Of a DNA stretch of 39,589 nt, positions 32,661 through 33,208 are shown piece after piece. Position 1 is the first letter of the stretch, and the number at the start of each line of letters is the position of its first letter. Origin of the DNA: a virus (Duplodnaviria; Heunggongvirae; Uroviricota; Caudoviricetes); IMG/VR virus record IMGVR_UViG_3300014770_000007, positions 1 to 39,589 of that record; one strand, 5' to 3'. The notes below the pieces were generated by a model. The model was not told where the DNA came from. It did not search any database and was given only the letters and a program-made list of their open reading frames with translations. The translations under genes were made by a program, and so were the position numbers.

Positions 32661-32763
32661 AAATTTGTCTCCCATAAATTTTAAATTAGTTTCCCACAGA
32701 TACCCACGGGTTGTCCACACGCCCTGTTTTACAGCTAATACAATGTTAGTATTAATTTTACAG

Positions 32764-32784
32764 TTAGTGCACAACATGCACTAA
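32764..32784. promoter_or_regulatory. palindromic operator-like site
   Basis: ttagtgcaCAACAtgcactaa, perfect 8-bp inverted arms. Confidence 0.5.
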
Positions 32785-32950
32785 TTTTCGACTATATACA
32801 TAAATACGCAATCCATAATCACAATAATTTCAAAGACTTGCATAAAAACATAGATTACAATAGGTATCTCCCAGACTTTTATTTTAGCTCTATTTACAGC
32901 TAATACACTATATGCACTATCTCTATCTTTCTATACTACTTCTTTTTTAT

Positions 32951-33040
32951 ATCTATGTTTTCTATGTTATCTATGAAAAGATAATAAAAAGAATAAGATA
33001 GGGAAGGGTTGGTTAAAAAGTAAACATGACGAAATCTATG
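32951..33040. repeat. conserved ~90-bp intergenic block, copy 2
   Basis: ~90% identical to 16041-16128; contains phased atctatg repeats. Confidence 0.8.
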
Positions 33041-33078
33041 TTAAATATAACTTTAATGCACAATATGCACTATATAAT

Positions 33079-33160
33079 TCACAACGTGCATTAGCTGTAC
33101 CAACATAGATACACAACGTGCACTAACAGCTAATACACAACGTGCATCTTGCACTAGCTG
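33079..33160. promoter_or_regulatory. cluster of ACACAACGTGCA-type repeats / degenerate palindromes
   Basis: cacaacgtgcattagct, acacaacgtgcactaacagctaatacacaacgtgcatcttgcactagctg; related to the agctaatacaGAACGtgtattagct sites at 16142-16227. Confidence 0.45.
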
Positions 33161-33208
33161 CTAAAGCACGTTATGATTTACCCGTGGTTAAATAAGAAGG
33201 GTGTGATA

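Follow-up and report, generated by a model that had tools for sequence, protein, structure and literature searches.

A 548-bp gap in the genome of a 9NA-like phage, at positions 32661-33208 of the window (the whole stretch of 39,589 nucleotides that was analysed), very probably holds a cognate, autoregulated binding array of the protein encoded immediately to its right. This protein is a homologue of gp84 of phage 9NA, and sequence comparison suggests that it reads the array through a variable N-terminal helix-turn-helix domain (HTH1). A serious but tentative possibility is that the gap is an iteron-type replication origin, of which a remote locus that we call region 1 would be the second copy. 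The evidence on whether gp84 acts as a regulator or as an initiator leans modestly toward the origin. Binding, autoregulation and, above all, origin function are what we infer from the patterns described below.

Megablast places the window among virulent siphophages, in the Sashavirus/Nonanavirus (9NA-like) group. Its identity is 94-96% with Escherichia phages PDP46, PJ16 and KarinMuster_Bas82 and with Sashavirus isolates, and approximately 80-86% with Sasha, Solent, SP069 and 9NA. The gap is indeed AT-rich, as had been noticed, with a GC content of 31.8% compared to 43.4% in the 39.6-kb window, while its length had been underestimated at 520 bp. Its left border is the leftward terS gene (32025..32660, minus strand), which encodes a small terminase of 211 aa homologous to 9NA gp1 (PHROG match to phrog_51, E-value of 7e-12; weak match to Pfam Terminase_2). 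We agree with the preliminary description in placing the start of terS at 32660 rather than using a longer ORF from 32777, because this start has a GGGAGA Shine-Dalgarno sequence and the terS genes of 9NA, Sasha and four metagenomic relatives likewise encode 211 aa. On the right, the gp84-family gene (33209..33985, plus strand, 258 aa) has a start that agrees with the N-termini of its aligned homologues. Together the two genes are a divergent pair with a converging operon on either side, a synteny kept in every relative examined. A bidirectional terminator-like hairpin identified by a terminator scan (33990..34010) separates the end of the gp84-like gene from the leftward operon that converges on it, and the Sasha record has a terminator annotated at the equivalent place. 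The GenBank records that we inspected carry no annotation within the gap except for ribosome-binding sites and a further 'terminator' in Sasha, and a literature search outside Zeng et al. 2019 found no description of an origin, operator or regulator in the 9NA-like group.

The sequence elements singled out in the preliminary description were all present at, or a few bases from, the positions given there. These are the perfect palindrome TTAGTGCA-CAACA-TGCACTAA (32764-32784), two copies of the motif TTTACAGCTAATACA (32728-32742 and 32893-32907) and three ACAACGTGCA sites (33081, 33113 and 33137), of which approximately 0.0 were expected. We generalised the sites to the 19-bp pattern TARTRCA-N5-TGYAYTA and considered sequences with up to two mismatches as good matches. 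The 39.6-kb window contains nine such matches, seven in the gap (starting at 32736, 32765, 32901, 33054, 33075, 33107 and 33131), two in region 1 (starting at 16143 and 16206) and none elsewhere. A first-order Markov simulation of 2000 runs yielded a mean of 0.15 sites in the gap and a maximum of 2, against the seven observed with a pattern that was derived from the same sites on which it was counted. Independent support for the array comes from the cross-lineage comparisons below and from 9NA, where a different motif is restricted to the same two regions. All nine matches to the 9NA motif TAACAC-N3-GTGTTA (at most one mismatch) fall there, in a scan that covered 51.9 of the 52.9 kb and left out bases 50001-50999.

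The sites can be divided into three groups on the plus strand. Leftmost, in 32728..32784, the pattern scan placed L1 (32736-32754) and L2 (32765-32783, within the perfect palindrome), each preceded by a TTTACAG flank. Site L3, TTTACAGC-TAATACACTATATGCACTA (32893..32919), was identified by the pattern scan and by lineage comparison, and lies about 50 bp to the left of a 9-bp repeat. The gene-proximal array (33054..33180) consists of R1 (33054-33072), R2 (33075-33093), R3 (33107-33125) and R4 (33131-33149), joined by R5 (33162-33180), which has three mismatches and the reverse orientation. What had been described as palindromes are composite sites, in which a conserved (T/A)GTT(T/A)CAG flank is followed by a lineage-specific core. 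In the window this core is C-TAATRCA...TGYAYTA, and about eight such composite sites occur in the gap. The homologue of L2 is the gap element annotated as a terminator in Sasha, which we reinterpret as a predicted binding-site palindrome. We rejected L2 as an intrinsic terminator, as it lacks a T-run: its stem has three G-C pairs, its tail is TTTTCG, no co-oriented gene lies upstream, and it is absent from the terminator-scan output for the window. Among viral contigs, the 14-mer CTATGACAGGATTA gave chance single matches only.

Between L3 and the gene-proximal array lies the second copy of a conserved AT-rich block, whose presence in the gap had been correctly recognised. It spans 100 nt (32941..33040) and is 90% identical to 16029-16128 in region 1. 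Comparison with region 1 and a TRF search, which detected a repeat of period 9, resolved the block into a 3x9-bp tandem of TATCTATGT (32950-32975), an A-rich tract and a copy of ATCTATG at 33034. The 3x9-bp tandem of the ATCTATG motif forms the centre of each block copy, and all seven ATCTATG copies in the window are confined to the gap and region 1. In nearest-neighbour calculations over segments of 40 nt and 60 nt, no part of the window had a less stable duplex than the two block copies (at about 16029 and 32940, ranked first and second), which lie approximately 3.5-4 SD from the mean, a property that fits an unwinding element but is not specific to one. In 9NA and the Klebsiella phages the two block copies share only about 60 nt, and the ancient shared core consists of the 3x9-bp TCTAT repeat and the A-rich tract alone. 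The 100-nt identity is therefore partly an extension in the Sasha lineage. The block in the gap of the window is a long form that is elsewhere found in region 1.

We consider it very improbable that the block is a small RNA or peptide gene, or that the repeats are non-functional remnants of recombination. Such readings could draw on the partly lineage-specific nature of the 100-nt identity, on the 60 nt shared in 9NA and the Klebsiella phages, which suggests gene conversion, and on a 9-codon mini-ORF that can be read in the block. Against a peptide, the mini-ORF is missing in 9NA. An RNA gene was rejected because the block had neither an Rfam family nor a fold signal: no Rfam match reached the gathering score, the sole match with an E-value below 1 was an implausible miRNA, and folding z-scores lay between -0.2 and -1.9 on either strand of both copies. 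Moreover, scans found no promoter or terminator around the block. Against mere remnants, the architecture and spacing are kept in lineages where gp84 is only 35% identical, and this conservation in divergent lineages argues for selection. Other candidates for the conserved motifs were also set aside. A reading as DnaA boxes or IHF sites was rejected by inspection, and TTGTCCACA at 32710 falls on the -35 element of terS and is not kept across lineages. The ORF at 16720-16974, which has a PHROG match to 'RDF/excisionase', was rejected as a binder of the TCTAT repeat because its N-terminus is a lipoprotein signal peptide and 9NA and KP13-27 do not conserve it.

Region 1 (15923..16291) repeats the essentials of the gap at a distance. 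Its outer parts are family promoters, one leftward (15923-15946) and one rightward (16234-16291), and between them lie the first block copy (16029-16128), ATCTATG at 16122 and 16130, and two perfect TAATACAGAACGTGTATTA sites (16143-16161 and 16206-16224). We compared this region from six phages or contigs, and the layout is shared by 9NA, KP13-27, SP069, Bas82 and BDX09P1. The order in every lineage examined is block, two sites and the UP element of the rightward promoter, with the second site 4-13 bp upstream of the UP element. With the exception of BDX09P1, the sites in region 1 are of the lineage's own type.

The gp84-like protein consists of the variable HTH1 (aa 1-60), a linker and a conserved central domain (aa 76-180), followed by a flexible (EAPVARV)x5 linker and, at the C-terminus, a further conserved domain some 40 aa long. 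The second linker explains the tandem repeat reported in this gene, a 21-bp repeat of 4.6 copies at 33764-33860 that encodes (EAPVARV)x5. The number of (EAPVARV)n copies ranges from none in 9NA to about 13 in Sasha, and such variability in copy number suggests that the linker tethers the small conserved domain at the C-terminus. As the 21-bp repeats are without similarity to the sites and absent from 9NA, we rejected them as a lambda-like internal origin.

At the sequence level the protein belongs to an orphan family. Its PHROG is phrog_25538, of unknown function. Pfam, including all of its HTH models, gave no match at E <= 0.1, NCBIfam gave none, and a profile search of PDB sequences returned nothing relevant; nor was sequence similarity to known initiator families found in Pfam, NCBIfam or PDB. 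A HMMER search of 1.84 billion representative proteins identified about eight true clusters of homologues, all of them proteins of 9NA-like phages, and the remaining matches involved the low-complexity linker only. A single-sequence AF2 model reached a pLDDT of 43, so we used instead a model built with a 13-sequence alignment (pLDDT 75.6; residues 1-60 and 76-185 form the confidently modelled domains). In this model HTH1 is a compact helical bundle with a helix-turn-helix that can be superimposed on solved XRE domains, and the HTH-like N-terminus reported earlier thus appears to be of the XRE type. Its nearest structural relatives are transcription regulators of phages and plasmids. A fold search of BFVD returned only the protein's own family (SP069 homologues). 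The central domain may be a second HTH: it is also matched by the HTH1 profile in the 9NA and Klebsiella homologues, alignment shows it to be duplicated in Klebsiella phages, and an hhalign comparison with HTH1 gave an E-value of 0.009 at a probability of 4.6%. That this putative second HTH would read the conserved half-site or the TCTAT motif is attractive but unproven.

To compare lineages, we assembled the gap from 16 phages and contigs. TerS is 82-99% identical across these lineages and gp84 only 37-97%, and the variation in gp84 is concentrated in the first ~60 residues and the linkers, while the alignment shows residues 76-180 and the last ~40 to be conserved. HTH1 type and site core change together across about eight phage lineages, with a one-to-one correspondence in the lineages compared. 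The core is TAATRCA in the Sasha type, ATAACAC in 9NA and L007, CTTACCAG in the Klebsiella phages and L146, and ACACATCTGGTAT in L144 and L145. Related HTH1 sequences (the GKRLPR group) pair with related cores (the CCAGA group). The geometry is largely retained as the cores change. Every lineage has a left site, in most of them about 50 bp (50-52) from the TCTAT tandem (32 bp in L144), and most also have a right site about 50 bp from it (84 bp in the window), with two to six further sites extending toward the gp84 gene.

Two natural swaps bear on the same relation. Between 33040 and 33431, BDX09P1 is only 30-60% identical to the window, against 93-100% in the flanks, and this divergent stretch coincides exactly with the gene-proximal sites, the promoter and the first 75 codons, which include HTH1. 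In the replaced stretch a new motif, CTATSAYAGGATTA, occurs six times. Sasha-type sites persist in region 1 of BDX09P1 and in the left half of its gap, and since these mismatch the phage's own HTH1, binding there would be dispensable or performed by another protein. In SP069, a stand-alone ORF of 69 aa encodes an additional HTH1 of the 9NA type just upstream of gp84, which itself has another HTH1 type. Both site types occur in the SP069 gap, and region 1 contains one of each.

The co-variation of HTH1 with the site core and the two swaps point to gp84 as the cognate binder, as do two observations on other candidates. No HTH1 paralogue was found elsewhere in the window or in the BDX09P1 pieces compared, and a ParB-like protein (37432-38199) was rejected as the binder because its good conservation between lineages, with 82% identity to 9NA over the part compared, does not follow the variation of the sites. 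The preliminary description had proposed that the product of 33209..33985 is a site-specific binder. The modelled HTH fold and the co-variation of sites with HTH1 favour this proposal, and a sequence match to a known family does not come to its aid. We envisage the gap as the main cis-acting assembly site for the gp84-family protein, whose N-terminal HTH would read the variable core of the composite sites, arranged so as to bracket an easily melted AT-rich block around the 3x9-bp TCTAT repeat.

The position of the sites relative to promoters suggests what such binding might do. A candidate terS promoter (32688..32717, minus strand), read from the letters only, has a -35 element TGGACA (32717-32712), an 18-nt spacer with ACCCGTGG and an extended -10 element TGGGAAACT (32696-32688). 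The terS-proximal 60 bp are kept in a ten-lineage alignment (TKGMCA, about 18 nt, TGnGAAACT/CAAAAT) and are most simply explained as this promoter. For the gp84-like gene, candidate promoters lie in 33149..33193 (plus strand), namely TTGCAC(33149)-17-TATGAT(33172) and an extended -10 element TGGTTAAAT (33185-33193), of which R5 overlaps the former and abuts the latter. In 9NA, one site overlaps the extended -10 element (CCGTGTTATACT) and another the gp84 Shine-Dalgarno sequence. A site in L144 overlaps the -10 element of a TTGACT-17-TACACT promoter, and the Klebsiella phages and L146 have one in the gp84 5'UTR, after a good sigma-70 promoter and before the start codon. Because the gene-proximal sites overlap or abut the promoter, and in relatives also the -10 element or 5'UTR, autoregulation is likely, and gp84 probably limits its own synthesis from the promoter overlapped or abutted by the nearest sites. 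The standard promoter-like element of the phage, TTAAAATAATTCTTGACGGATTACA, has ten copies in the window and flanks region 1 on both sides. In a window-wide count of this motif, a promoter type with UP element and -35, none fell in the gap. The ACCCGTGG/extended -10-like motif of the gp84 gene resembles those before terS, terL and the 9NA structural operon, a likeness that would suggest late rather than early expression of gp84.

These positions would also suit a purely transcriptional control region, with gp84 as an autoregulated XRE-family repressor or activator that controls how strongly or when the divergent terS and gp84 promoters are active and, by way of the two region 1 sites, does likewise for the rightward promoter at 16234. 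In that case the AT-rich block would contribute no more than curvature, or a site for a host bending protein, for looping between the sites that flank it. We regard this as possible but doubtful. It accords with the closest folds, with the overlap of sites with the gp84 promoter or 5'UTR in several lineages, with a site that lies also within the terS 5'UTR in 9NA and L007, with the second region 1 site that abuts the promoter UP element in all lineages examined, and with the location of L1 and L2 some 30-70 bp upstream of the conserved terS -35 element. However, five to ten sites exceed the needs of autoregulation, and their positions are conserved relative to the AT-rich block rather than to the terS promoter. 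The block itself is kept twice in all lineages, more strongly than the sites, a conservation for which a role as a spacer is insufficient. Finally, the flexible linker of variable copy number with its small conserved C-terminal domain resembles a tether for a partner rather than the dimerisation module of a repressor.

The origin reading is favoured by several features taken together. Many sites bracket a conserved AT-rich element at a fixed distance, and the blocks are the least stable DNA in the window, lie between divergent promoters and are duplicated. As expected of an iteron origin, the site cluster is confined to two regions, with nine of nine matches in the window and nine of nine in the scanned 9NA record, and AT-rich DNA that would suit an unwinding element lies beside the sites. 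In addition, the domain plan of gp84 is like that of lambda O, and no origin binder is recognisable among the replication genes of 9NA. A Pfam scan of ten 9NA proteins, mostly from the replication-gene region, identified an Enc34-like SSB, a DUF2800 nuclease, a SNF2 helicase and an NrS-1-like primase/D5 helicase, and no known origin-binding protein among the ten; the 9NA record annotates gp65 as a putative DNA polymerase. Several observations speak against an origin. The sequence of gp84 resembles no known initiator in Pfam, NCBIfam or PDB, its fold relatives are regulators and its gene has no early-type promoter, the second site of region 1 is in a typical regulator position, the region 1 sites of BDX09P1 mismatch the HTH1 of that phage, and AT-rich intergenic DNA is often the least stable without being an origin. 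If the gap is an origin, bound gp84 would open the AT-rich block, or hand it to the phage primase-helicase, and negative supercoiling by the divergent terS and gp84 promoters could help melting. Region 1 would be a second, dispensable copy.

Among known systems, lambda O and ori-lambda resemble such an origin in several respects. There, too, an array of ~19-bp dyad sites lies beside an AT-rich, easily melted stretch, the protein has a variable N-terminal DNA-binding part, a linker and a conserved C-terminal part as in gp84, and among lambdoid variants the DNA-binding part and the sites are exchanged together between related phages. Unlike lambda O, gp84 has no match to Phage_rep_O or any other Pfam family. 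Ori-lambda is single-copy and inside the O gene, whereas the window sites are upstream of the gene and at a second locus, and lambda uses P and host DnaB, whereas the 9NA-like phage has its own primase/D5-type helicase. Two separated cis regions with the same initiator-binding repeats are found in SPP1 (G38P with oriL and oriR) and P4 (alpha with ori and crr), where the repeats lie beside AT-rich or bent DNA and one region is near the initiator gene and the other far from it, among other genes. The gap and region 1 resemble this two-locus arrangement, but no homology was detected, and P4 alpha has a DNA-binding domain of its own; in the 9NA-like phage the binder would instead be a protein distinct from the helicase. 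In SaPI origins, iterons flank an AT-rich region on either side and their specificity differs between related elements, and SaPI Rep is a D5/SF3-type replicative helicase that carries the specificity domain. Flanking iterons, variable specificity and a D5/SF3-type helicase also occur in the 9NA-like phages, with the difference that specificity here follows a separate HTH protein rather than the helicase.

The XRE/Cro-C1 regulators (Aca proteins, Cro, P22 C2, controller C proteins and MqsA/HigA antitoxins) share the fold of HTH1, but gp84 is much larger at 258 aa, adds a conserved domain, a repeat-expanded linker and a C-terminal module, and has 7-10 predicted sites and a remote second cluster. 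Bipartite HTH proteins of the POU type are a structural analogy only, as the second HTH of gp84 is weakly supported. A DNA-binding protein that is exchanged with its cognate site array as a specificity cassette is of a well-known kind; what is new here is the family to which the protein belongs, the composite nature of its sites, their fixed geometry about the 9-bp repeat and the two-locus arrangement. More speculatively, and in our view rather unlikely, the gp84 family could represent a new class of phage origin binders, with tandem XRE-type HTHs, two origin copies, a helicase-recruiting C-terminus and exchanged specificity cassettes. Its tandem HTHs would read composite sites in conserved and lineage-specific halves, and each origin copy would be centred on the 3x9-bp repeat with sites about 50 bp to either side. 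The tethered C-terminal domain would recruit the NrS-1-like primase/D5 helicase, as papillomavirus E2 does E1, and a cassette of HTH1 plus sites would move horizontally, giving rise to replication-specificity types.

In characterised headful phages, pac sites are found in or beside terS. The packaging cleavages of 9NA have reportedly been mapped by Zeng et al. 2019 (J Virol), with an initiation-cleavage region of 170 bp; papers citing that study gave no coordinates for the cuts. Phage 9NA packages by a pac-directed headful mechanism, and one pac fragment is found in its DNA (PMC4153490). As the gap adjoins terS in a relative of this pac/headful-type phage, TerS, perhaps with gp84, might direct the first headful cut there; the preliminary description had likewise named the gap as a possible place of the pac site. 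The high conservation of TerS, of the terS-proximal 60 bp and of the TCTAT repeat would be in keeping with this, as would the synteny of the divergent terS/gp84 pair in every lineage seen. We nevertheless consider a pac site in the gap improbable. The block and sites occur twice per genome, in contrast to the one pac fragment of 9NA (PMC4153490), and their presence at two loci makes it unlikely that they suffice for pac. It is gp84, and not the conserved TerS, that the variable sites follow, and the conserved terS-proximal sequence is well explained by a promoter role. The further suggestion of a cos site is unlikely given the pac/headful packaging type of 9NA (PMC4153490).

Members of the 9NA-like group (Nonanavirus, Sashavirus and Klebsiella relatives) serve in biocontrol and are present in phage collections. 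For these phages, gp84 and its predicted sites constitute a concrete cis/trans pair that involves an orphan protein conserved across the group. For about eight specificity types, the sites are placed by prediction to the single base, with the BDX09P1 and SP069 swaps as natural controls. If the gap is an origin, gp84 would be a new type of initiator for phages that replicate with a primase-polymerase/D5 helicase, and the pair would provide parts for engineering replication specificity. If it is a transcriptional switch, a regulator of terminase expression would have been identified. With respect to annotation, the comparison supports the 211-aa start of terS. Many public records of these phages are opened inside the terS/gp84 gap, which in 9NA corresponds to 52621-52869 and 1-295, and the 454 assemblies of SP069 and SP062 break exactly within its 9-bp repeat; the present description of the gap offers a likely reason for such breaks.

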